Origin: a virus | Length of the DNA stretch: 44,713 bases | IMG/VR virus record: IMGVR_UViG_3300019458_000012 | Span: 1 to 44,713 of that record | Strand: one strand, 5' to 3' | Shown here: positions 4,409-44,713 of the stretch, in pieces | Layout of the letters: the number at the start of each line of letters is the position of its first letter | Position numbering within the stretch: position 1 is the first letter of the stretch | The notes under the pieces: model-generated | Seen by the model: only the letters and a program-made list of their open reading frames with translations | The model's database searches: none | Told to the model about the DNA's origin: nothing | Program-made: the position numbers and the translations under genes

Positions 4409-4446
4409 GTTACTATCCTGTTATCACAAAGCGTAAAGGTTAACGG

Positions 4447-4468
4447 GACAGGCTATAGCCTGTCTTTT
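4447..4468 (+). terminator. Rho-independent terminator-like hairpin, + strand polarity
   Basis: GACAGGC-TATA-GCCTGTC (7-bp stem) followed by TTTTC on the + strand. The - strand version has no U-run. Confidence 0.55.
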
Positions 4469-4519
4469 CAAAAATAAAAACAGGTTACAGGTTGGTTTAT
4501 GTACCAAATTGGTACAAAT

Positions 4520-10008: not shown

Positions 10009-11175
10009 TCACGTTTGCACAACATTTGCAAACGTTTCCTGTGCGGTCTTCATTTTAATACCAGGCTTGTCGTCGCTTGCTGCCGCGACTGTATACCCAG
10101 TGGTGGGAATGTATGCCCATTCTTTCACCCGCTCATCGGCTGACTTTCCGAGCTTCGACATTTCGGCGGGCGACTTCAATTCCGGCGCTGTCATAGCCAG
10201 GTCACCAAATTCTTTCTGGAAGATTTCGGTGGCACCAGACTTCCAAACACGGTGCGCTTTCTTCTGCACCAGTTTGACGCCGGGGATTTCGACGCCTGCA
10301 TTCAGGCGGTTGAAATTTTCTTCTTCGACGGTCTTGATATACATCTTGACCGGCGCGATCATCAACCACTCTTGGCCAAGGGTAAGGTGGCTTGCATCCT
10401 TCAACCATTTGGTGTTGGCAGTCGCAGCTACAGCGAACATTCCCTTCAACAGAGGGCAGGCGATCTTGGCAGGACAGAAGCGGCAGTGCTCACCGGCAGC
10501 GTAGGCGTTGCCTGGGTTCCGCATCTTGGGCAGAAGTTCATCACGAGCCCATTCAAAAATTTCACCGGCAGTGGTATCCCAAACCTTGATTGGACTTTCC
10601 TCAAACGTTCGAGGCTGAACAATCGTGATCTTCACTGGGAAGTCCGGGTCAATTGACCCATGCTCACGCTCGATATCCCGCAGGATGCCGTAGGCGTAAT
10701 ACATGCACTGCTTGTTCCGCCTCACATCAACGACAATGCCTGCGCCGTACTTGAAGTCTACGACATGCAGCCGTTCGGAATTGAACACAGCGAAGTCCAC
10801 AGTTCCAAAGAATGAAGGATGAGGCCGGTCTTCGACCTTTTCGCCGATGGTGTGCTCGACAAAAACCTCATCGTCTTCTTTCGCAACCTTGCGGCAATAG
10901 TCAACATAGGTCTGGATACATTCCAGTTCCAATTTGGTTGCGGGTACACCTTCGAGGATGCGGTCGCCCAGTTCCCAGGCATCAAATCCATGCGCTACGC
11001 ATTGGGCAGCAGCAACGTGCGCCGCCGAGCCTTCCTTGCGCCATTCGGGATCGACCGAGTAATCTTCATCCGGACTTTCGGACAGGGCTTTGGCCAACTC
11101 AACGGAGCCTCCACAAGCCATCCATCGCGCGGCACCGGAAGCGCCGAGTGGTGAGTGTTCAATTTCCTGTGTCAT
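10009..11175 (-). CDS. PD-(D/E)xK / Cas4-like exonuclease (DUF2800-type), 388 aa
   Basis: N-terminal SPLGASGAARWMACGGS, VDFKYGAG core, C-terminal Cys cluster HCRFCPAKIACP. Confidence 0.75.
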   Translation of the reverse strand: MTQEIEHSPLGASGAARWMACGGSVELAKALSESPDEDYSVDPEWRKEGSAAHVAAAQCVAHGFDAWELGDRILEGVPATKLELECIQTYVDYCRKVAKEDDEVFVEHTIGEKVEDRPHPSFFGTVDFAVFNSERLHVVDFKYGAGIVVDVRRNKQCMYYAYGILRDIEREHGSIDPDFPVKITIVQPRTFEESPIKVWDTTAGEIFEWARDELLPKMRNPGNAYAAGEHCRFCPAKIACPLLKGMFAVAATANTKWLKDASHLTLGQEWLMIAPVKMYIKTVEEENFNRLNAGVEIPGVKLVQKKAHRVWKSGATEIFQKEFGDLAMTAPELKSPAEMSKLGKSADERVKEWAYIPTTGYTVAAASDDKPGIKMKTAQETFANVVQT

Positions 11176-11211: not shown

Positions 11212-11292
11212 GGGTGAGGGATACTCCAGAATAGTCCCTCACCCTATTATTACGTGCTGTTGCGGCTTCGACTTGCCTGGAGATAGCACGTA
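11212..11292 (-). other. Two strong intergenic hairpins
   Basis: GGGTGAGGGA (11212-11221) pairs with TCCCTCACCC (11235-11244), a perfect 10 bp stem. TACGTGCT (11251-11258) pairs with AGCACGTA (11285-11292), a perfect 8 bp stem. Confidence 0.7.
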
Positions 11293-11296
11293 AAAT

Positions 11297-11887
11297 TTAC
11301 TTCTGCGAGGCAGCGAATGCCTTCACAGCTTCGATGAATTCAACACGCTTGCCTTCTGGCACCCGCTTGAGGGATGGCGGAACGCCGTCCTGGGGGCAGA
11401 ACTTCGTGATAAGCTCAGTGATTTCCTTCGGCTTCTTCACCTTGGCGTTGATCGACACAACCAGGTCGTAGAGAGCCTTGTCGGAAATATCGACCTTTGG
11501 TGCAGCCGGATCACCGCCTAGAATATCGTCGCCAATGCTGGCTTCATCGGCCTTCGGCTGCGCCGTGGATGCGGCACCATCGAGAGGAAAGCTTTCCACT
11601 GGGGGCAGTGTCTCCGCAGCTTTCTTGCGCGTTGTCTTCGGCTTGTCGTCAGTGATGACAGCAGCCGCAGCGCTGGTATCAGCAGAACCCTTGGCGGCGG
11701 AAGCCTTCTGGCCGAGCAGTTCCTTCACCTTCTTGTCGGCCAGGGTGGCAGCGTCATGGAGCACGGCATTGTAGTCCGCGCCTTCATCAACGGTGAAACT
11801 CAGTTCAACGCGGACCTTGCGGGCCGGTGCATATTCTTCGATTGCTTTCTTGCCGTCTTCGACGGACACAGTACCATTCGTAATCAT
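11297..11887 (-). CDS. Hypothetical two-domain protein with an Ala/Lys-rich linker, 196 aa
   Basis: Long ORF in the - block. Its start overlaps the upstream stop (ATGA, 11884-11887). Confidence 0.65.
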   Translation of the reverse strand: MITNGTVSVEDGKKAIEEYAPARKVRVELSFTVDEGADYNAVLHDAATLADKKVKELLGQKASAAKGSADTSAAAAVITDDKPKTTRKKAAETLPPVESFPLDGAASTAQPKADEASIGDDILGGDPAAPKVDISDKALYDLVVSINAKVKKPKEITELITKFCPQDGVPPSLKRVPEGKRVEFIEAVKAFAASQK

Positions 11888-15699: not shown

Positions 15700-17538
15700 A
15701 TGGAAAAATCCGCGCAACATCAGGCAGCACTGAGGTACGCCGAACGAGGAATTCCCGTTTTCCCATGCGTGGAGAACGAGAAAGCTCCTGCCGCCGAAGG
15801 CGGTTTCAAAGCTGCGTCTACAGACCCCGCGCAAATTAACGCCTGGTGGTCCCGTAATCCGAACTTCAACATCGGTTGCAGCCCCCATGCTGCTGGTTGC
15901 TGCGTAATCGACGTTGACGCGCCGGAAGCTATAGATGAACTCGAAATGGTTTATGGAAAGCTTCCGGCGACCTTTACAATCCGTACCCCCAGGGGCGGAT
16001 TGCATATGTGGTACAAGGGTGCTCTGCCGCCATCTTCCAGCAAACTGGTTAAAAAGATTGATACACGAGGAATAGGTTCCTATGTGCTTATGCCCCCCTC
16101 CGTCATCAATGGCGTCTACTACAAGGTCATTGACAAGACGCCTCCGCAGCCGATCCTTGAAGATATTGTTGAGGCGTTGCGGCCAAAGGAAGGCGCTCAA
16201 GGAATTGCCGCGCCGGATCATGTGCAGGATTTGCCAATTGCAATTCAGAGAGGCCGTGACGCCGCGAAGACTTGGCCTAAAGCTGAATGGGGAACCATTG
16301 ACGATACAACCTATGCTCACTGCGCCGAGCTTGCCGACATGGGGCTCAGTGACACAGCGATTTATGATATCATCAAAGAGTGGTATGAGCGAACTGGCAC
16401 AGAAGGTGATTTGGAACGATTGCATACAGTCGCCGCAAGCGGTGTAAAGAACCGTCAGAACGAGGCTGGTGTTTGGGCTGTGCAAGACCCCAAGGTCCAG
16501 TTCGCAAATTTCGAAGGGCAAGTCTATACGGAACCGAGCAAGCCTTCGAAGTATGCGCCGCTGAGTGAAGAAGAACAATCCGCGTTGCCGCCTCCAACCT
16601 GGCTGCTGCCGAATGTTCTGCCTGCTGATCAATTGGTAATGCTCTACGCGCCTAGCAAAGGGTGGAAAACATTTCTCGCCCTGGACTGGGCGATGTGCAT
16701 TGCCTCTGGCAATCCTAAATGGGGTGCCGTCGAAGCTGGTGACGTTGTTTACATCGCAGCCGAGGGTGCGACCGGCATAGGCAAGGTGCGCCGCCCTGCC
16801 TGGAAGCTTTTGCACAATGTTGAGGGTCCGGTGCCATTTCATGTCGTCACCTATATGCCCCACGTTGCTATGGAAGGGCAGATTGCAGAGATGGTCCAGG
16901 CCATCAAGGATAAGCTTGGAGGGCGAAAGGTGCGCCTGCTGGTAGTGGATACCCTTGCCCGCCTCATGGCCGGTCTGGACGAAAGCGGCGCGAAGGATGC
17001 GGGCATCACGGTTGAATGCCTGGAAATGCTAAAGCGTGAGCTTGGCTGCACTGTGCTCTGCCTCCATCACACCGGCAAGGATGCCAACCGAGGCGAGCGC
17101 GGATCGTCTGCGTTGCGTGCTGGCTTCGATAGCGGACTTGAGCTTGTGGCCGATAAAGCCAATGGCACTGCTGAGGTTTGGGCGCGGTGGCACAAGGATG
17201 CCGAAACACCGGCTGTGCCCTGGCATCTGAAAGCTGAACAAATCATGGATAGCATGGCATTCCGTTTTGCTGAGGCAGATGAATTGCCGATTAAAGACCG
17301 GCTGCTGCCTTCCGATGTAGGTTTCGTGCTCCGCACAATGGGAGTGTTTGGCAAAGACAACGCCGTCCCTTATCACACTCTAGTCCCTGGCATCGCAACT
17401 ATGAAATCATGGACCGAGGCCAAGGCAAAGACGGCAATCAAGGCACTGTCGAAGACCGGCAAGCTTCGCGCCTATGAGCTAGAGCCGGGTGGCCCCTACT
17501 GTTTGTCGGAAGGCGCTGAGGAAATTCCATTCGATTGA
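15700..17538 (+). CDS. Bifunctional primase-polymerase (Prim-Pol N-domain) fused to a RepA/DnaB-like (AAA_25-type) NTPase, 612 aa
   Basis: GIPVFPC, CVIDVDAPE, TPRGGLHMWY (prim-pol). YAPSKGWKT P-loop, LLVVDTLARL Walker B, LCLHHTGKD. It is the only + strand gene inside the - block. Confidence 0.9.
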   Translation: MEKSAQHQAALRYAERGIPVFPCVENEKAPAAEGGFKAASTDPAQINAWWSRNPNFNIGCSPHAAGCCVIDVDAPEAIDELEMVYGKLPATFTIRTPRGGLHMWYKGALPPSSSKLVKKIDTRGIGSYVLMPPSVINGVYYKVIDKTPPQPILEDIVEALRPKEGAQGIAAPDHVQDLPIAIQRGRDAAKTWPKAEWGTIDDTTYAHCAELADMGLSDTAIYDIIKEWYERTGTEGDLERLHTVAASGVKNRQNEAGVWAVQDPKVQFANFEGQVYTEPSKPSKYAPLSEEEQSALPPPTWLLPNVLPADQLVMLYAPSKGWKTFLALDWAMCIASGNPKWGAVEAGDVVYIAAEGATGIGKVRRPAWKLLHNVEGPVPFHVVTYMPHVAMEGQIAEMVQAIKDKLGGRKVRLLVVDTLARLMAGLDESGAKDAGITVECLEMLKRELGCTVLCLHHTGKDANRGERGSSALRAGFDSGLELVADKANGTAEVWARWHKDAETPAVPWHLKAEQIMDSMAFRFAEADELPIKDRLLPSDVGFVLRTMGVFGKDNAVPYHTLVPGIATMKSWTEAKAKTAIKALSKTGKLRAYELEPGGPYCLSEGAEEIPFD

Positions 17539-17679: not shown

Positions 17680-18213
17680 CTATAAACCATTGGAATTTAT
17701 CCAAGCATGATCCTGCGCCTGCGCTTTAATGTACGCGATCCTATAATCGTGTGCATCACAAATTCGCCGCAGAATGCTTTTGATTTCCAACAAGGTCTTC
17801 TGCCCGCAATTTGGTTGCCGCCGCAATATGCCTTCCCAATTGGCGAACCCAGCGAACGCCAGTAAATCCCTGATGTTATGAATGTTTTGGTTTGATAAAA
17901 CTATTCTTGTCCTGGTATTCATCCGGATATGGTCTAAAGGGATGCAGTGAATATCAGTCAGGGAAGCACTGCATTTTTTGAACAGTTCAATTATGTTGTC
18001 TGCCTCCGTCAACCGTTGCTGATATCGCGTTTTCTCCAAAGCTATATGATATAGGCGCGATACACTAGACGCACTCAAACTCATAGCCTTCCCGATACTC
18101 AAAAAAGTCGGGGCTGGTTCAAGTTTTCTTACCCACAGAACAAACTTCTCACGCTCATTTAGTGGGGTCTTATGAGTTCCATACTGCATCATAAGGGGTC
18201 TTATGAGTTCCAT
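17680..18213 (-). CDS. Putative transcription factor: sigma-70 region-4-type HTH plus RNAP alpha-CTD-like domain
   Basis: LNEREKFVLWV...SIGKAMSLSASSVSRLYHIALEK for the HTH. LDHIRMNTRTRIVLSNQNIHNIRDLL...QPNCGQKTLLEIKSIL aligns with E. coli alpha-CTD. The true start may be ATG 18192/18189 (MMQYG) because of the 31-bp duplication. Confidence 0.6.
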   Translation of the reverse strand: MELIRPLMMQYGTHKTPLNEREKFVLWVRKLEPAPTFLSIGKAMSLSASSVSRLYHIALEKTRYQQRLTEADNIIELFKKCSASLTDIHCIPLDHIRMNTRTRIVLSNQNIHNIRDLLAFAGFANWEGILRRQPNCGQKTLLEIKSILRRICDAHDYRIAYIKAQAQDHAWINSNGL

Positions 18214-18225
18214 ACTGCATCATAA
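18164..18225. repeat. Perfect 31-bp tandem duplication (2 copies) across a gene junction
   Basis: ggggtcttatgagttccatactgcatcataa at 18164-18194 and again at 18195-18225. Confidence 0.95.
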
Positions 18226-19869: not shown

Positions 19870-19917
19870 GATATCACTAGCGATATCCTAATGCCCTGAG
19901 ACATTGCCCCAGGGCAT
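19870..19917 (-). promoter_or_regulatory. Intergenic cassette copy 3: hairpin plus 18-bp quasi-palindrome
   Basis: - strand ATGCCCTG-(11 nt)-CAGGGCAT (19917-19891), then GATATCGCTAGTGATATC (19887-19870), then TTGACAACGGAG and ATG 19850. Confidence 0.6.
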
Positions 19918-19927
19918 AGAGATGCCG

Positions 19928-20275
19928 TTAGTTGAGCACCGCGCCTGCCGGTGCCCGAGAGCCAGCATCCGCTTCCTGCTTTCGCAATACCTCATTAAAG
20001 ATATCGCCGATAGGCCGCGTTGCATCTGCTGGAACATCCTTTTTGCTTTCCGCCAACGCAAAGACGGCAAGGTTACCAAGGATGACTTCACAAGCTGCCC
20101 TCATCCGGTCCAAAGCTCCGACTGCATCCAAAGGCGGCAAGCGCATGACCGAGTTAAGAAAGTCACGCTCTGCTCGCGTGTTTGCTTTCAATTCCGGCGA
20201 GTACCCCGCCGGCATCTTGTCAAACGCTTCATCAGACACGGGCTTATTCATGTCAATTCCGGATAGTGTCTTCAT
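19928..20275 (-). CDS. Hypothetical protein, 115 aa (paralog of 21343..21681)
   Basis: RBS CAGGAGAAAGACT. Shares DFLNSxM ... PIxDxxxxxxxxxA with the paralog. Confidence 0.6.
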   Translation of the reverse strand: MKTLSGIDMNKPVSDEAFDKMPAGYSPELKANTRAERDFLNSVMRLPPLDAVGALDRMRAACEVILGNLAVFALAESKKDVPADATRPIGDIFNEVLRKQEADAGSRAPAGAVLN

Positions 20276-20292
20276 AGTCTTTCTCCTGTTTG

Positions 20293-20919
20293 CTATAATC
20301 CCAGGGCTTCACAATGAAGCCTGGAAACGTAGTCTGCACTTTCGTATTTGGCCGGGAACCGAGAGCGCAAATAAATGCACCAGTCATCCCACAGCGCCTC
20401 ACAACCTCCAGCACGCCGTAGCAATGCCTGGTAGGCAGTAAGATATTCTGCACGCTTGGCAGGGCGAGACCTCTTATAATGCCAAGCACGCAAATAGATA
20501 GGCAGGGCTTTACGTCCCGCCAATACTTTAAAACGATTTACATTGTGACCGTCAATGCAGCCGCCGAGGCCAAAGGCTAGTTGCGTCACAAATCCGCCTT
20601 TGACTAATCCGAGCCCAGGCATAGCGCCAAACATGGCGAGCAGTTCCCGTTCAGCTTGATCCGGATCAGCAGTGCAGGATAATTCCATTGCATCATTATA
20701 GATTGACGCCTTATTGTCCTGCACATGCTGATAGGCATCGCGCTTGAAGCCCCACAAGAATTTGCTTTCGATACCTTCCCGGTCAATATCCTTCATTGCG
20801 CCTGGTACAGTGTCAAGGGATCGCTGCACTGTTGCATATACAAACGTAACAACCCGCGCGAATTCATCCGGGCCGCGCTTGGCATATGCAGCAATTCGAG
20901 GTTGATGACTTTCAAACAT
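20293..20919 (-). CDS. Protein with an endonuclease-III-like helix-hairpin-helix (HhH-GPD-like) motif, 208 aa
   Basis: MPGLGLVKGGFVTQLAFGLGGCIDGHNVNRF aligns by eye with E. coli Nth [31 protein letters not shown], including the Asp. Confidence 0.45.
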   Translation of the reverse strand: MFESHQPRIAAYAKRGPDEFARVVTFVYATVQRSLDTVPGAMKDIDREGIESKFLWGFKRDAYQHVQDNKASIYNDAMELSCTADPDQAERELLAMFGAMPGLGLVKGGFVTQLAFGLGGCIDGHNVNRFKVLAGRKALPIYLRAWHYKRSRPAKRAEYLTAYQALLRRAGGCEALWDDWCIYLRSRFPAKYESADYVSRLHCEALGL

Positions 20920-21112
20920 TTTTCTGCCCCCGGATCAAACTCAAAAGTTCCCTTTCGCTAAAGCCCCCTAGTTGCATTGATGAAAGCCAGAATACGTCAA
21001 CAGGCTTATCCGCATTTGCCACAGCGGCGCGTACGGCTTTTGGAAAGCGATCATATGCCGCCATCTTTTGTTCCGCTCTAAGCTTGCGGCGTGGACTGCT
21101 AACGTCAATCAT
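20912..21112 (-). CDS. Hypothetical protein, 66 aa
   Basis: ATGA coupling at 21109-21112. 8-nt overlap with the downstream start. Confidence 0.5.
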   Translation of the reverse strand: MIDVSSPRRKLRAEQKMAAYDRFPKAVRAAVANADKPVDVFWLSSMQLGGFSERELLSLIRGQKNV

Positions 21113-21285
21113 TGTTTTGCTGCCTTCACAATATGGGCAAAGGGATTAGGGCGGCGCTTGCCTTCGATCCTATTCAGATGCACCCATATGCCTGCCCAAT
21201 ATCCAAACATGGCGAATTTGTATCTGCCCAGGCTATCAATGGCCTTGGCTTCCGCTTCCGCAATGGCTTTCTCTATCGTTTGCAT
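21109..21285 (-). CDS. Hypothetical protein, 58 aa
   Basis: Start moved to ATG 21285, which has AGGAG 5 nt upstream. Sequence MQTIEKAIAEAEAKAIDSLGRYKFAMFGYWAGIW. Confidence 0.5.
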   Translation of the reverse strand: MQTIEKAIAEAEAKAIDSLGRYKFAMFGYWAGIWVHLNRIEGKRRPNPFAHIVKAAKQ

Positions 21286-21342
21286 GTGTGCTCCTAACAG
21301 TTTTGTAAGAGGCAGGATTGCGCCTGCCCCTAGCAAACTTGT

Positions 21343-21681
21343 TTAGTGGACTGTATCGCCTTCCCCAGGCGCGGCATAGCCTTCCGGGGTTGCCGCCGCC
21401 CGTGCTTCAATGCCTTTCAGCAAATCCCGGATAGGGGTGCCGCCCAGGTTCACAGTAGCCTTGCCGGTTTTTGTCGGCAGCATGGACAAAGCGCCCAGCA
21501 TGGCAAGCTTTTCCACAATTGCCGTCAAGGCAGATGACATGCCATTAGCGGCTTGCCCTGCATTCATGATATCAAGGTCCATAAGCGAATTGAGAAAGTC
21601 CTTTCCCAATTGCCTCGACCTGATAACGGCGGGGTTGTCTCTCTTCATGCTTTCGGCTTCAATCTTTTTAAGGTCAATCAT
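21343..21681 (-). CDS. Hypothetical protein, 112 aa (paralog of 19928..20275)
   Basis: Preceded by 75-bp repeat copy A, which supplies its RBS. Confidence 0.6.
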   Translation of the reverse strand: MIDLKKIEAESMKRDNPAVIRSRQLGKDFLNSLMDLDIMNAGQAANGMSSALTAIVEKLAMLGALSMLPTKTGKATVNLGGTPIRDLLKGIEARAAATPEGYAAPGEGDTVH

Positions 21682-21691
21682 AGCTTCATTT

Positions 21692-21766
21692 TCCTGTTAA
21701 ATGATATCACTAGCGATATCGTAAGGCCCATGGGCTTCGAACCCATGGACCTAGCGATCCCGTTAG
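21692..21766 (-). repeat. 75-bp intergenic repeat, copy A (stop, hairpin, 18-mer, RBS)
   Basis: Identical to 22093-22167. Hairpin arms at 21725-21734 / 21742-21751 with a 7-nt loop. 18-mer at 21703-21720. Confidence 0.95.
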
Positions 21767-22083
21767 GCGGCGCGTTCAGCTTTGGCCACGTACTCTCGCA
21801 ACACTGCCAATGAACTGTCATAGGTAGGGATTGAAGGATCAACCTTGGCGAGGCCATTGTTGTCGAGGCCCCGCCCGGCAATGCCGCCCGCAAGCTTCGC
21901 CGCAAACAATGACAGATCAAGGTTTGTCGTATCAGGCCGCCCATAGTGTTCCGAGAAGGACAGCCAATAGCCGACAAGGTAAGAACGCCGTTCAACCGCA
22001 AAGCCTTTCTCTTTTGCTCTGGCAAAAAACTTTTCTGCGTCGTCGGCGGCGGCAAGCAAACGTATTTGATCTTTAAGGTTCAT
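21763..22083 (-). CDS. Hypothetical protein, 106 aa
   Basis: RBS ACAGGAGAA supplied by repeat copy B. Stop TAA lies inside repeat copy A. Confidence 0.6.
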   Translation of the reverse strand: MNLKDQIRLLAAADDAEKFFARAKEKGFAVERRSYLVGYWLSFSEHYGRPDTTNLDLSLFAAKLAGGIAGRGLDNNGLAKVDPSIPTYDSSLAVLREYVAKAERAA

Positions 22084-22092
22084 AGTGCATTC

Positions 22093-22167
22093 TCCTGTTA
22101 AATGATATCACTAGCGATATCGTAAGGCCCATGGGCTTCGAACCCATGGACCTAGCGATCCCGTTAG
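22093..22167 (-). repeat. 75-bp intergenic repeat, copy B
   Basis: Identical to 21692-21766. Hairpin arms at 22126-22135 / 22143-22152. 18-mer at 22104-22121. Confidence 0.95.
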
Positions 22168-22589
22168 TTATAGTGTGAGCCGGTCACAAATCGAATGCCC
22201 ATCTCATTGTCTTTTATCACATCCGCATAGGCTTCAACGGCGGCCATATGCACACTTATTGACTGCGTATGAACATTGTGTATTTTGCTATACCAGAGTC
22301 TTGCACCACCCGGCCAATGCTTTGTATAACCCAGGGCAAGCAATTGCTTTCCGGCTTTTGTGTTCAAGCGGACTTCCGGCGCATGTACCCAGGCGAAGCC
22401 GCAATCGAAGCCGCGCTCGTTCTCAGGCGGTAGCTTTGCATCCGCTGCATTTGCAGCAACTTCTGCGGCCCATCCCATGAATGCTTTCTCACTGATCAAT
22501 CCGCCTGATACGGCAAATATGATATAACTGTTAGCGCCGGTGGCAGATGAATGCCCCCAAACGCCGCCGTTGTCTTTCGCATGGCCCAT
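22164..22589 (-). CDS. Hypothetical protein, 141 aa
   Basis: Start moved to ATG 22589 (ACAGGAGA 7 nt upstream). Contains the GFDCGFAWVHAP motif, not recognised. Confidence 0.6.
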   Translation of the reverse strand: MGHAKDNGGVWGHSSATGANSYIIFAVSGGLISEKAFMGWAAEVAANAADAKLPPENERGFDCGFAWVHAPEVRLNTKAGKQLLALGYTKHWPGGARLWYSKIHNVHTQSISVHMAAVEAYADVIKDNEMGIRFVTGSHYN

Positions 22590-22620: not shown

Positions 22621-22650
22621 TATATAAGCACGAAATGATCCCAATGTCAA
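22621..22650 (-). promoter_or_regulatory. Sigma-70-like promoter (TTGACA-18-TATATA) overlapped by a TACCAGGT operator-like site
   Basis: - strand TTGACATTGGGATCATTTCGTGCTTATATACCAGGTGACC. -35 at 22650-22645, -10 at 22626-22621. Confidence 0.5.
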
Positions 22651-22721
22651 ATTAGGACTATATTCCTGCCTCTCTGTTACACTGATAAACTATACTATAC
22701 TAACACCCCTAAAGGGGGTGT

Positions 22722-22758
22722 ATAGTAATAGCAGTATAGCAGAATAGCAGAATAGAAA
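22722..22758. repeat. 8-bp iterons: ATAGCAG(t/a) x3 with degenerate flanking units
   Basis: atagta atagcagt atagcaga atagcaga atagaaa read directly. Adjacent hairpin ACACCCC-taaag-GGGGTGT at 22703-22721. Confidence 0.85.
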
Positions 22759-22766
22759 ACTAAGGT

Positions 22767-22813
22767 AGTCGAATGTTGGCTTATGCCCTGCCCCTGAGAG
22801 ACAGCATTCGACT
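22767..22813. other. 12-bp stem / 23-nt loop hairpin in the noncoding island
   Basis: AGTCGAATGTTG (22767-22778) pairs with CAGCATTCGACT (22802-22813). One position is G-U on the + strand RNA and A-C on the - strand RNA. Confidence 0.7.
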
Positions 22814-22958
22814 GGCCTAGTTCACTATCGGATCACGCATTGCAGCTTGCCGCATACTACGATAGCATAGGCAACGTTGTCATGGTGAAGTGTCAAAGGA
22901 TTGCTTCCGATGGGTTGAGAGCGTCTTACAATGTGAATGATCATCGGTATTGATCCCG

Positions 22959-43600: not shown

Positions 43601-44713
43601 ATCGCATCCTGTCCAATTCCTGTATCGCGGCCTCCGAATGATGGACAGTACAATCCGCATTGGCGGAACCTACACTGGCGCACGGAAAGAGTTTGGCGCT
43701 ATGGGTGCCGCTGATATGGCTCGCGTGTTTGGTGGTGACTTTGCAGAAAGAAGTATGTCAACTGTCATGAACCAGGTTGCTTCTATCACTCCGTTCTGGA
43801 CTGGTTTCCAGCGTGCCGGTGTAGACAGTGTTGTGAAGGCGTTGAAGAATGATCCTACAGGCTTCGGTCTTCGCGGCATGAAGTACATGACGATGACAGC
43901 TATTGGAATGTACGCTCTCACCGAAGTCTTGGAAGACTGGTACAACGTGCCGGAACCGAGCCGTCAGCGCAATCGTGATCGCAAGATGGCTGACAACTTC
44001 ATGTATATTCCTGTTCCCTGGAATGGTGAGCTTAACAATTTCACTTTGCCGGTGCCACAGGGTATAGGTGCTGTATTCATCTCTCCTGTGCATCGCATCA
44101 TGGCGCATCTTCGTGAGAAAGACCCACGGGCATTCAAGGACTGGGCATACAATGTTGCGTTCAGCTTCACGGGTGCTGCCCCAGTCTTAGACAACCCTGC
44201 GATCAATGCAGTGCTCGAAGGCGCGTCCAACTACGACTTCGGATTTGGCCGCCCGGTTGTACCGGCTCGCTTTGAGAACGTCAGCGGCTACAATGCATAT
44301 CAACCGTGGACTTCTGAAACAGCAAAGTCCATATCGCGCTGGATTGGGGAACCCGGCCTCGATGTTGCCGATGTGACGCCTATAATGATTGAGCACATCC
44401 TGGAGACATTCACCGGTACAGGCGGCAAAGAAATCATGCGCATAATGGATGCCGTTGTAAAGGACAACAAGCCGCCATCTGACTGGGCTAATACTCCGTT
44501 CTTCGGCAGCTTCTTCCTGCGCCATCCCGGCATAAATGCCCAGCCCATCAATGACTTCTATGACGAGCTTGACAAATTCAGGAACCTGAAAGGCGATGTG
44601 GACCAGGCGCGGAAGCGCGGGGATCGTGCTGCTGTCCGCGCAGCGCGGGAACAGTTGCGTGAGGAAGTCAACTTGACCAGGACTGCGGAAGCCATGCAGA
44701 AGATGCGGGCGAT
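40629..44713 (+). CDS. Large internal virion / DNA-ejection protein, 1414 aa, continuing at 124..283 in the circular map
   Basis: I hand-translated from ATG 40629 to the window end with no stop. The frame joins track ORF 8..283. Contains a Gly/Pro-rich linker (GAGGGGDGGKPPGEPP). Function is inferred from size and position. Confidence 0.7.
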   Translation, partial: MAQPTEGQKQILDYQDAGYTDKMINTIKSERSKAALDAGYSQSDIDKYWGDGPGVGTEVFKSIAKDNLMKAGWKYENLPMADPKNALDVFVASFGISTSGLRYRRPKEQLPPTSEMSWPAAFANAGGTLIGDAGDMLLGLGGAFATTANPVAAGSASMAYPEAIRRGYLYSYEKGNVSTANILEGMTKAPAEIAKAGLIGAAGGKAGSFAYNAAEKVASPLVASMTANIAGTVASTGVGAGLNGEMPSLKDFTVASAMMALLPGSHYTLANSLFRKAGARGRVVFSEAGERIKSNVQQIWAKTGMKPTDQARIAEVDKIARQSVFAKDVDGQVITDGAWDKWRKPEPEPYKAKDTGEVEIIGGMKPPEEGADQMTVAGEVNQETGIAPVKSVTPEQVDAIVDFDAPVTPEQADVINEAARKYKTPDGAVDLEAVLIEHVAGEPAAQVFRASGRDHSTLDPKTQRFLEYAGKRLQDDGYAPQPKEGAGGGGDGGKPPGEPPKALGGPPEKPFNRAFEFVVEDVNSKVEVSTYATGWRGLLGRFLKSLPDADTAREAGATWRELSPLAGVDKMLGIGQKLGDLGIEAIARLQYSADDRFMFRLKKGGGGYKVTTDKFGKPQYEANYDVPTMQSIMSKADKLEHGREGFRAFLQAQSTFDLIKLGKKTTTTLKEALEIESKVPAKERETYRELAHLYQRMMDDSLFGVMSHGGLNDDGFFKFKLERPHYFPQKVFIALDKVVGGSKLKRLFKKAKGHDFVLKDQFLSTMEVLQARERFNSANMTRLNAVRELQKFFKAPGKDVVVYDPKTKKPATVTLDEDGAPVVDKKFFDFKEGDAEIIYYEDGRQKSYTVPDFEGRDVFLKSLLSKNVFERDVAVTFFTKAAQFARFTITTMPSYVYRMVVRDAFGHATLTKYGGAPYVNLMRGAFDLVDTAAHGKITGGDNLARGKGKYDEATLNGAVVGGLIAPQFDALLNSYTHMEHTGFMGGVINGVSHPVQFLYRGLRMMDSTIRIGGTYTGARKEFGAMGAADMARVFGGDFAERSMSTVMNQVASITPFWTGFQRAGVDSVVKALKNDPTGFGLRGMKYMTMTAIGMYALTEVLEDWYNVPEPSRQRNRDRKMADNFMYIPVPWNGELNNFTLPVPQGIGAVFISPVHRIMAHLREKDPRAFKDWAYNVAFSFTGAAPVLDNPAINAVLEGASNYDFGFGRPVVPARFENVSGYNAYQPWTSETAKSISRWIGEPGLDVADVTPIMIEHILETFTGTGGKEIMRIMDAVVKDNKPPSDWANTPFFGSFFLRHPGINAQPINDFYDELDKFRNLKGDVDQARKRGDRAAVRAAREQLREEVNLTRTAEAMQKMRA
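44591..44713. repeat. Terminal overlap copy 2, identical to 1-123
   Basis: Exact match read by eye. Confidence 0.95.

Follow-up and report, generated by a model that had tools for sequence, protein, structure and literature searches.

A family of covarying intercistronic RNA hairpins in the early region of an uncultured phage clade: candidate mRNA processing signals

Three repeated cassettes in the early region of an uncultured phage belong to a family of long RNA hairpins, four copies in all, that occupy the spaces separating its early genes, and the apparent 18-mer in these three cassettes is the 3' lower arm of such a hairpin together with a 7-nt extension complementary to that arm. We conclude that the cassettes are most likely mRNA processing and stability signals, and swap points for small genes, rather than promoters or operators. 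The window is the whole stretch of DNA analyzed here, 44,713 nt of IMG/VR record IMGVR_UViG_3300019458_000012; the features discussed are collected in Table 1.

The 18-mer, GATATCGCTAGTGATATC, has exactly three exact copies in the window, all on the minus strand (shuffle mean, 0.01). Its match on the plus strand has 2 mismatches, i.e., 16 of 18 positions are self-complementary; exact-match counts and shuffles agree with the preliminary description, which had reported an identical quasi-palindrome at three sites. The rest of the layout given there was also recovered as claimed: an upstream box, CTAACGG(G/C)ATC(G/T)CTA(G/T)G, two differing inner hairpins, and start codons at 22083, 21681, and 19850. 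The repeat is real and noncoding, and in the inner hairpin structure is conserved rather than sequence. Cassettes A and B are 99% identical across 80 nt. Two observations are new. The TAA stop codon of the preceding open reading frame (ORF) falls within the box (CTAACGG) in each of the three cassettes. The box itself pairs with the 5' half of the 18-mer, which makes each cassette one imperfect hairpin of ∼60 nt that runs from the upstream gene's stop codon and ends just short of the next ribosome-binding site (RBS). We also found a homologous cassette without the 18-mer, absent from the preliminary description, between ORFs 21343..21681 and 21109..21285 (here type 2, with cassettes A to C as type 1). 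The repeat thus stands, but the 18-mer is not supported as a stand-alone element, since its 5' 11 nt supply one side, the 3' strand, of a lower stem that covaries with the upstream box as partner. As a side observation, avoidance of GATATC, the EcoRV site, was not seen (27 sites versus 10 expected).

Table 1. Cassettes and neighboring features of the early region (SD, Shine-Dalgarno sequence)
Feature	Position	Strand	Evidence	Details
Candidate early promoter	22621..22650	-	Read from sequence	Sigma-70-like, TTGACA-17-TTATAT; conserved in relatives
Cassette A, long hairpin	22109..22169	-	Folding; covariance model, 71.1 bits	TAA stop (22166-22164) of ORF 22164..22589 within 5' lower arm; upper stem-loop 22153-22125; 2x2 internal loop CU/UA; 3' lower arm is 5' half of 18-mer; SD AGGAG 22096-22092; ATG 22083
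Cassette A, 18-mer	22104..22121	-		First 11 nt form 3' arm of lower stem; refolds whole as small hairpin GAUAUC-GCUAGU-GAUAUC if 5' arm is unavailable
Orphan ORF g2	21763..22083	-		106 aa; bracketed by 80-nt direct repeats A and B
Cassette B, long hairpin	21708..21768	-	Covariance model, 67.4 bits	TAA stop (21765-21763) of ORF 21763..22083 in 5' arm; upper stem-loop 21752-21724; SD AGGAA 21695-21691; ATG 21681
Cassette B, 18-mer	21703..21720	-		Same dual role as in A (lower-stem arm, refolding)
Type-2 (fourth) cassette	21292..21347	-	Covariance model, 67.8 bits	Architecture and internal loop as in A to C; lower stem UAACA..UUUG / CAAA..UGUUA; second GATATC absent; 3' arm directly abuts SD AGGAG (21295-21291); ATG 21285
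Cassette C, long hairpin	19875..19933	-	Covariance model, 60.5 bits	Lower stem and internal loop of A and B kept, with U-G where A and B have a G-C pair; upper stem-loop (19917-19891) differs; TAA stop of ORF 19928..20275 in 5' arm; SD GGAG 19861-19858; ATG 19850
Cassette C, 18-mer	19870..19887	-		Alternative small hairpin of 7 to 9 bp, varying with the context folded

Every copy folds as one long hairpin, with fold z-scores of -4.0 to -4.6. A covariance model detects 17 copies across six related uncultured phages, all on the coding strand. Standard pairs fill 93 to 94% of the paired cells (15 to 17 copies, six phages), a value that the way in which copies were first collected partly guarantees for the upper stem, but not for the lower-stem covariation or for two copies found by the model only; controls with slid sequences reached only 33 to 46% pairing. 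Two-sided changes occur at 16 to 18 of the 21 pairs, which none of 500 shuffles matched. At least six compensated versions of the lower stem occur (AUCG/CGAU, AUCA/UGAU, AUCU/GGAU, UUUG/CAAA, UUAG/CUAA, and GACUG/CAGUC). There are 30 G-U pairs versus 7 A-C pairs, which assigns the fold to the sense strand. GNRA or UNCG tetraloops close many of the hairpins; loops seen include GCAA, GAGA, GCGA, and UGCG. Taken together, the covariation, the G-U excess, and the tetraloops point to a structure in the transcript. The module begins with the stop codon in the 5' lower arm, followed by a lower stem of ∼11 bp with small mismatches, the CU/UA 2x2 internal loop, and a G+C-rich upper stem of 9 to 13 bp, which is free in sequence and often capped by a tetraloop; the 3' lower arm and the next RBS complete it. 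The internal loop is conserved in nearly all copies; being small, it could represent mere tolerated mismatches. No Rfam 15 family matched at gathering thresholds, and a permissive search of Rfam gave only chance-level matches.

A search for the 18-mer among related phages was proposed in the preliminary description. In IMG/VR, the 18-mer matched nine loci (L001-L009), all chance-like and with unrelated flanks. A relative, L016, carries one identical copy. Between the window and L016, cassette identity is 83 to 93%, compared with a DNA identity of 60 to 75% for conserved genes. The loci examined have 1 to 5 copies each, with up to 5 in L016 and in another relative, L020. The close relatives L014, L015, and L179 have complete early regions with zero cassettes, so that the element is dispensable, a point against the role proposed below; in relatives without cassettes, the early genes overlap and are tightly coupled. 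No DNA match was found among 50,697 phage records, and the closest cultured phages share <30% identity in PrimPol. The flanking proteins are orphans, and IMG/VR exact-peptide scans for g6 and PrimPol gave no matches. When JGI metagenomes and IMG/VR were scanned with profiles, the only useful relative gained was L020, which is the same phage as L182; the scans also gave many distant loci without cassettes. Gapped cassette patterns had zero copies in 185,579 reference genomes and, in IMG/VR, had copies only in L182. Since cassettes were found neither in the 185,579 genomes nor outside the clade in IMG/VR, there is no support for an origin in the host or for wider spread.

The position of the cassettes within the transcription unit is regular. 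The upstream stop codon lies within the 5' arm in 17/17 copies, at an identical model position in 13, and the downstream ORF starts 6 to 26 nt past the 3' arm in 15 of the 17. All copies are downstream of a conserved sigma-70-like early promoter, as read from the sequence. In the window, this predicted promoter would put all four cassettes in one leftward early unit, 0.45 to 2.7 kb downstream of it.

As the best explanation, we propose that the cassettes are an intercistronic RNA module of the early polycistronic mRNA, subject to RNase III-type processing and acting by the side as homology patches, and we give this reading about an even chance of being correct. A processing site was among the options listed in the preliminary description, and it is the one that we prefer here. 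RNase III substrates comprise two turns of helix; their internal loops restrict cutting to a single strand, and processing leaves protective 3' hairpins (PMC1540722). Folding and covariation give the cassette helix approximately two turns (11 pairs below the 2x2 loop and 9 to 13 above it). A double-strand-specific, RNase III-type endonuclease would cut at or near the internal loop. The stable upper hairpin would then stay on the upstream cistron as a protective 3' end, and the freed 3' arm would refold, giving the downstream cistron a small GAUAUC hairpin at its new 5' end.

The 3' arm can refold into a small hairpin because the second half of the 18-mer is complementary to it. With the 5' arm blocked or removed, this hairpin forms in eight of the nine type-1 copies (-4.6 to -10.7 kcal/mol), and its start is offset by 0 to 1 nt from the putative 5' terminus of the cut RNA. 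In cassette C, it nearly matches the lower stem in stability. The refolded hairpin is weak, and it is absent in three copies with otherwise type-1 features and in all type-2 copies.

The preferred mechanism is modeled on the early sites of phage T7. Dunn and Studier are said to have described, in 1983, the RNase III signals R0.3, R0.5, R1, R1.1, and R1.3 of the T7 early genes, and cleavage of these intercistronic signals by RNase III has been demonstrated. Like the cassettes, they are repeated hairpins of approximately two turns, situated in 60- to 80-nt gaps that separate early genes on a single polycistronic mRNA. An upper stem, an internal loop, and a lower stem are common to both, and in both the stop codon can sit in the 5' lower arm and the RBS lies ∼20 nt farther on; T7 intercistronic regions that we folded showed the same build, and in the region between genes 0.4 and 0.5 a stop codon likewise occupies the 5' lower arm. 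The T7 copies, like ours, share part of their sequence. On the other hand, the T7 sites have no sequence similarity to the cassettes, and the conserved parts differ: T7 conserves the upper stem, whereas the cassettes conserve the lower stem and the internal loop, which is 2x2 and symmetric, unlike that of the T7 sites. We know of no T7 counterpart of the 3'-arm refolding segment. Finally, cleavage has been shown for the T7 signals, whereas processing of the cassettes is predicted from fold and sequence.

Conserved cassettes may also serve, as a by-product or in a second role, as homology patches for inserting or deleting small orphan genes. A search of 5.8 billion proteins for homologues of the g2 protein found none but itself. 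In the relative L012, a g1-like gene is followed by a cassette and then by a g3 remnant, with g2 absent. Similarity begins abruptly at CTAAC and stops at the start codon, beside unrelated genes. Promoter-early stem-loops (PeSLs) of T4-type phages combine a strong sigma-70-like promoter with a terminating stem-loop (PMC2839356, PMC4122927). As with PeSLs, the cassettes are repeated composite elements that fill the whole gap between the stop codon upstream and the next ATG; they flank orphan genes in a variable early region, and their direct repeats match an indel between relatives. On comparative grounds, cassettes A and B around g2 and the L012 indel agree with PeSL-like recombination between flanking copies. 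Unlike PeSLs, the cassettes have a stable stem-loop without a promoter consensus (a -35 or a conserved -10 element) or a U-tract, and their conserved flanks pair together in the RNA.

A more elaborate form of the processing model is less probable, and we hold it only tentatively. Three segments (box 1 and the left and right halves of the 18-mer) would make the cassette an RNA switch, in which translation termination on box 1, or cleavage at the internal loop, flips the 3' arm from the long stem into the small 5'-terminal hairpin, so that each cistron receives its own protective 3' and 5' ends. The module would then be a portable expression unit that moves orphan genes within the clade, an RNA-processing counterpart of PeSLs.

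The preliminary description had offered a different reading, in which the 18-mer is a phage-specific (middle) promoter with an extended -10 element, an operator for a dimeric helix-turn-helix protein, or both, and the preceding hairpin is a terminator, as in PeSLs. We consider this quite improbable, even though terminator-promoter cassettes are known in phages as PeSLs (PMC2839356) and the weak matches of ORF 17680..18213 to Sigma70_r4 and to an alpha-CTD-like domain suggest that a phage transcription factor may exist. The sequence TGATATCAT looks like an extended -10, but the corresponding hexamers of the type-1 copies read TATCAT, TATCAT, TATCTT, TATCAG, TATCAG, TATCAG, TATCAA, and TATCTA, with none in one copy; the final base is thus T, T, T, G, G, G, A, and A, so that the key last T is not kept. 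There is no -35 element, and a consensus promoter scan found no sites at the cassettes. The 18-mer is unchanged in the three window copies and one L016 copy, and L020 keeps the inverted half-sites in an altered form, GATAC/GTATC; the palindrome may still bind a protein. Against a dimeric operator, the gap between the arms, 6 nt in the window, ranges from 4 to 8 nt within L020, and three copies that have type-1 features (L020_3, L020_5, and L016v), like every type-2 copy, lack the second half-site. Moreover, covarying pairing with the upstream box accounts for the 5' half of the 18-mer, and the window contains no other palindrome resembling it, whether close to the early promoter or anywhere else. 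The scan of the window ORFs recognized no phage RNA polymerase, repressor, integrase, or other recombinase. N4-type hairpin promoters and T7-type promoters were rejected, as a phage RNA polymerase was found neither in the scanned window ORFs nor in the precomputed Pfam calls of the relatives. It is very improbable that the hairpins are intrinsic transcription terminators or attenuators within the early operon. Their G+C-rich, intergenic stems of 9 to 13 bp with tetraloops have the right look, but the upper-stem tails (UUACGAUAU, UUACAAAAC) and the full hairpin are not followed by a U-tract, and a terminator scan does not report them, whereas positions 4445-4475 of the same genome show the canonical form, a hairpin and a short T run (GACAGGC-UAUA-GCCUGUC-UUUUC). 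Essential replication genes also lie downstream, with no promoter after the cassettes.

Translation offers another explanation, which we regard as unlikely: the lower stem would tie the stop codon to the next start region, and a terminating ribosome would open it and pass to, or unmask, the next RBS; alternatively, the stem would insulate an inserted gene. The constant presence of the stop codon in the 5' arm fits this idea, as do the type-2 cassettes, in which the 3' arm abuts AGGAG and 6 to 7 nt separate the hairpin from the start codon, and the tight coupling of overlapping early genes in relatives that lack cassettes. In type-1 cassettes, however, the Shine-Dalgarno sequence lies ∼12 to 16 nt past the stem and is unpaired in both conformers, so that nothing is unmasked, and coupling requires neither a conserved internal loop nor a very stable upper hairpin. 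We likewise think it unlikely that the cassettes are mainly mobile or recombinogenic linkers traveling with orphan genes, PeSL-like without a promoter, and that the RNA fold is secondary, e.g., a stabilizer only. Recombination requires identity, not compensated pairing, sense-strand G-U pairs, or tetraloops, and these features indicate selection on RNA. The 80-nt direct repeats bracketing g2, the single cassette of L012, where g2 is lacking, the abrupt similarity edges between unrelated genes, and the patchy occurrence among relatives all point toward linkers, and so does the better conservation of cassettes than of genes, with identical upper hairpins in L016 and L020. Yet neither target-site duplications nor a transposase was found, and searches of IMG/VR and the 185,579 genomes revealed no copies outside the clade.

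Several other families of repeats resemble the cassettes in part. The stoperators of the temperate mycobacteriophage L5 are 13-bp asymmetric repressor sites. L5 stoperators and the start-associated sequences (SAS/ESAS) of cluster K mycobacteriophages are, like the cassettes, short conserved repeats that occupy small intergenic gaps near start codons and share a single orientation with respect to transcription; in the window, no repressor or integrase was recognized, and the cassette sequence is largely explained by RNA pairing. REP/BIME of Escherichia coli and the Correia elements of Neisseria are chromosomal and number tens to hundreds of copies; Correia elements are MITE-like and reportedly cut by RNase III. 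These, too, are repeated imperfect palindromes that are transcribed in operons and shape mRNA stability or processing, but cassettes number 1 to 5 per locus, have not been found in bacterial genomes, and show no target duplications. Integron attC sites share with the cassettes an imperfect hairpin right after each small gene, conserved ends and a variable top, and a stop codon that often lies within the ...CTAAC end. Compared to the attC cores RYYYAAC/GTTRRRY, the type-2 end GTTAGGA is one base off, and the type-1 3' end GCTAGTG lacks the GTT triplet. Furthermore, attC acts as a bottom-strand DNA fold, whereas the G-U bias of the cassettes favors the top (sense) strand. An attC reading was rejected on the core site, the strand bias, and the lack of an integrase among the window ORFs scanned. 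The loop of cassettes A and B, GGGUUCGAAGCCC, resembles a T-arm; a tRNA-like reading was rejected, as ARAGORN reported no tRNA or tmRNA and the loop is specific to A and B and replaced elsewhere.

The cassettes are an uncatalogued, covariation-supported family of RNA elements, without a match in Rfam, in an uncultured clade of ∼45-kb phages, and they illustrate that an apparent DNA palindrome can be largely the shadow of an RNA stem. The gain is incremental in that intercistronic processing hairpins and cassette-mediated shuffling are both already known in phages. If processing and shuffling both prove true, the cassette would give synthetic operons a compact and transferable insulator, and modular gene exchange in phage early regions could use RNA-processing hairpins in addition to promoter-terminator cassettes.

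The 18-mer GATATCGCTAGTGATATC has exactly three matches in the window, all on the - strand, against a chance expectation of 0.01 from shuffles, and differs from its own reverse complement at 2 positions, making it 16/18 self-complementary. The preliminary description of this sequence as occurring three times in the same layout is thus borne out, and the upstream box, two differing inner hairpins, and three start codons that it reported all match; cassettes A and B are 99% identical across 80 nt. The cassette repeat is real and nonrandom. In each copy, the TAA stop of the upstream open reading frame (ORF) sits within the box CTAACGG. Folded as RNA, the - strand forms one long hairpin per copy (fold z-scores, -4.0 to -4.6): around the inner hairpin, the leading 11 nt of the 18-mer (CGAU.UCG.UAGU) pair with the box (ACUA.CGG.AUCG). 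Because these 11 nt are a strand of that hairpin, the 18-mer is not an independent unit. The cassettes are best regarded as members of a family of intercistronic RNA hairpins, in which the "quasi-palindrome" consists of one stem strand and an extension that permits refolding.

A hairpin scan and alignment revealed a fourth cassette with the same build and junctions (GCUAGG...CUCUUAC). Its lower stem, formed in A to C by the box and the 5' half of the 18-mer, differs (UAACA..UUUG / CAAA..UGUUA) and leads directly into the Shine-Dalgarno sequence AGGAG. Copies like this one, which lacks the second GATATC, are referred to as type 2 and those like A, B, and C as type 1. A covariance model built from 15 cassette copies and run with filters off found exactly these four in the window.

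Cassettes and neighboring features of the window
Feature	Position	Strand	Remark
Terminal direct repeat	1-123 and 44591-44713		123 nt, identical
Hairpin outside the family	4445-4475		stable, intergenic; followed by a short T run
Hairpin outside the family	11212-11244		stable, intergenic; 11-bp stem, between - strand ORFs 11297..11887 and 10009..11175
PrimPol/AAA_25 gene	15700-17538	+	
Last ORF of small-gene early block	17680-18213	-	
Tandem duplication	18164-18225		perfect, 31 nt, GGGGTCTTATGAGTTCCATACTGCATCATAA x2
18-mer, cassette C	19870-19887	-	
Cassette C	19875-19933	-	type 1
g7	19928-20275	-	directly before cassette C
Fourth cassette	21292-21347	-	type 2
g3	21343-21681	-	directly after cassette B
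18-mer, cassette B	21703-21720	-	
Cassette B	21708-21768	-	type 1
g2	21763-22083	-	106-aa ORF
18-mer, cassette A	22104-22121	-	
Cassette A	22109-22169	-	type 1
Sigma-70-like promoter	22650-22621	-	TTGACA-17-TTATAT, kept in relatives
Inverted-repeat structures	22655-22830	-	two, large; fold z-score -6.7

We reached graded relatives through PrimPol (39 to 86% identity, contigs of ∼44 kb) and fetched their early regions. The model found 17 sense-strand copies in the window and five related loci (L012, L013, L016, L018, and L020); two nearly identical assemblies of the window's phage, L010 and L011, carry identical cassettes. In alignments of 15 and 17 copies, standard pairs fill 93 to 94% of cells, and 16 to 18 of 21 pairs show two-sided changes, values reached by 0/500 shuffles; with the partners shifted by 1 to 3 columns, pairing falls to 33 to 46%. 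Upper-stem pairing is partly by construction, as the first copy collection demanded an upper hairpin, but the lower stem, of which only a 4-bp extension was required, has at least six compensated versions. Pairing also holds in two copies found by the model only (L020, 11562-11622; L018, 13604-13659). G-U pairs outnumber A-C oppositions 30 to 7, indicating that the fold belongs to the sense strand rather than to a symmetric DNA cruciform or the opposite strand. GNRA or UNCG tetraloops (GCAA, GAGA, GCGA, and UGCG) cap several upper stems. In 17/17 copies, a long upstream ORF ends with its stop codon inside the 5' lower arm; in 15 of the 17, the start of a downstream ORF follows the 3' arm by 6 to 26 nt. 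Thus, we are highly confident that the RNA fold exists; Rfam holds no family matching the cassettes.

The preliminary description had suggested that the 18-mer could be an extended -10 promoter, a dimeric operator, or both, with the hairpin as a possible terminator or processing site. The last T, the most critical base of a -10 hexamer, is not kept among copies (TATCAT, TATCAT, TATCTT, TATCAG, TATCAG, TATCAG, TATCAA, and TATCTA, with one copy having none); there is no -35 element at the cassettes, and a promoter consensus scan reports nothing there, all of which tells against a promoter. An operator is disfavored, since half-site spacing varies within one genome and the second half-site is missing in some copies; the rest of the window, including the surroundings of the early promoter, has no such palindrome. 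An unknown protein may still bind the palindrome. A canonical terminator is excluded because there is no U-tract; the same genome does have a T-run hairpin, near 4.4 kb, where + and - strand blocks converge. Some cassette ends read TCTAAC...GTTAGGA, reminiscent of attC sites, but we rejected this reading because type-1 ends read GCTAGTG, the sense strand folds, and no integrase was recognized. The loop of A and B (GGGUUCGAAGCCC) resembles a tRNA T-arm but is confined to these two copies, and ARAGORN finds nothing, so a tRNA-like reading was likewise rejected.

The last 7 nt of the 18-mer (UGAUAUC) lie outside the long stem. Being complementary to its first 6 nt, they allow the 18-mer to fold into a small hairpin in competition with the lower stem. 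Relatives retain the small hairpin in altered form, namely, L020 (GAUAC...GUAUC, 4 to 8 nt between arms) and L012 (GAUAUC...GUAUC); it is missing from three copies with otherwise type-1 features (L020_3, L020_5, and L016v) and from all type-2 copies. We computed refolding with the 5' arm either barred from pairing, approximating a terminating ribosome, or removed, approximating a cut at the internal loop. Under both treatments, 8 of 9 type-1 copies refold into the small hairpin (-4.6 to -10.7 kcal/mol), leaving 0 to 1 nt between it and the new 5' end; in cassette C, the two conformers are nearly isoenergetic.

The build, two helical turns interrupted by a small conserved internal loop (2x2, CU/UA) in the intercistronic gaps of an early polycistronic mRNA, is that of the early RNase III sites of phage T7, whose identity and positions follow Dunn and Studier (1983). 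The four T7 intercistronic regions that we folded have the same layout, with the ribosome-binding site (RBS) ∼20 nt past the hairpin and, in the gene 0.4/0.5 gap, the stop codon in the 5' lower arm. Escherichia coli RNase III substrates typically comprise two helical turns, and internal loops limit cleavage to one phosphodiester; the 3' hairpins left by this shield the RNA from 3'-5' exonucleases (PMC1540722). By analogy, we propose that an RNase III-type enzyme cuts the loop on or close to its UA side. The G+C-rich upper hairpin would stay with the upstream cistron, and the downstream cistron would begin with the refolded small hairpin. We consider the chances of such cleavage and stabilization to be close to even, if slightly short of it.

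The model detected no cassette in L014, L015, L017, L179 to L181, or L184, in ∼75 more distant metagenome PrimPol loci, or in the two closest IMG/VR loci. Pattern scans found 0 copies among 185,579 reference genomes; in IMG/VR, L182 alone had copies, and it represents the same phage as L020. Thus, only part of one uncultured clade carries the cassette, which is dispensable; early genes of cassette-free relatives overlap and are tightly packed. A comparison of the window with L016 gives 83 to 93% identity for the cassettes and, at the DNA level, 60 to 75% for the best-conserved genes. Cassette similarity starts abruptly at CTAAC and stops at the start codon, and the coding sequence alongside is unrelated. 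The upper hairpin AGGGGCATGGTGCGCCATGCCTCT is common to L016 (14083-14106) and L020, phages whose PrimPols are 64% and 54% identical to the window's, and occurs four times in L020, suggesting recent cassette spread or homogenization.

The window constitutes a complete ∼44.6-kb phage genome; its terminal repeats are either direct terminal repeats or circular-assembly overlap. The leftward early gene block contains all four cassettes, at distances of 0.45 to 2.7 kb downstream from the sigma-70-like promoter. The small genes around them are orphans, and genes for PrimPol, an SNF2 helicase, DNA polymerase A, and other replication functions follow farther downstream. Among the window ORFs scanned, none was recognized as encoding a phage RNA polymerase, an integrase, or a repressor. 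The PrimPol/AAA_25 gene is the sole + strand gene within this long - strand block, an inversion kept in all relatives fetched. The last ORF of the small-gene block has weak, subthreshold Pfam matches to Sigma70_r4 (residues 18 to 61) and the RNA polymerase alpha C-terminal domain (residues 91 to 149), and its product may be a phage transcription factor redirecting host RNA polymerase. The tandem duplication spans the start of this ORF and alters the N terminus; L010 and L011 have a single unit, and either strain variation or an assembly artifact accounts for the duplication. The hairpin ACACCCCCTTTAGGGGTGT, part of the inverted-repeat structures immediately upstream of the early promoter, is surrounded by short direct repeats (CTATTCTG, CTATAC, and TAGTATAG). 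Similar regions precede the early promoter in L012, L014, and L015; the region may be regulatory, an origin, or a terminator. GANTC, the CcrM/HinfI-type site, occurs twice in the window versus ∼174 times expected, which hints at a host restriction system of this specificity. CTAG occurs 41 times (∼174 expected), 6 of them within the four cassettes.

Cassettes A and B form 80-nt direct repeats bracketing g2, which has no homologue but itself among 5.8 billion proteins, apart from a 33% tblastn match in L016. L012 has, in this order, a g1-like gene, one cassette, and a g3 remnant (MIDFDQADKAMKD versus MIDLKKIEAESMKRD); g2 and one cassette are missing. The small ORFs g3 and g7 are distant paralogues, with 38% identity over 37 residues (KDFLNSLM versus RDFLNSVM). 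In T4-type phages, repeated intergenic cassettes termed promoter-early stem-loops (PeSLs) recombine, leading to insertion and deletion of orphan genes (PMC2839356, PMC4122927). The repeats around g2 and the L012 arrangement follow the same pattern; however, a sigma-70-like promoter defines PeSLs, and the cassettes here have none. They thus appear to resemble PeSLs in behavior without being members. By sequence, the cassettes are a new family; functionally, they are of known kinds, namely, phage intercistronic processing/stability hairpins and cassette-mediated shuffling. The features worth an experiment are the three-segment refolding and the portable stop-to-RBS module.
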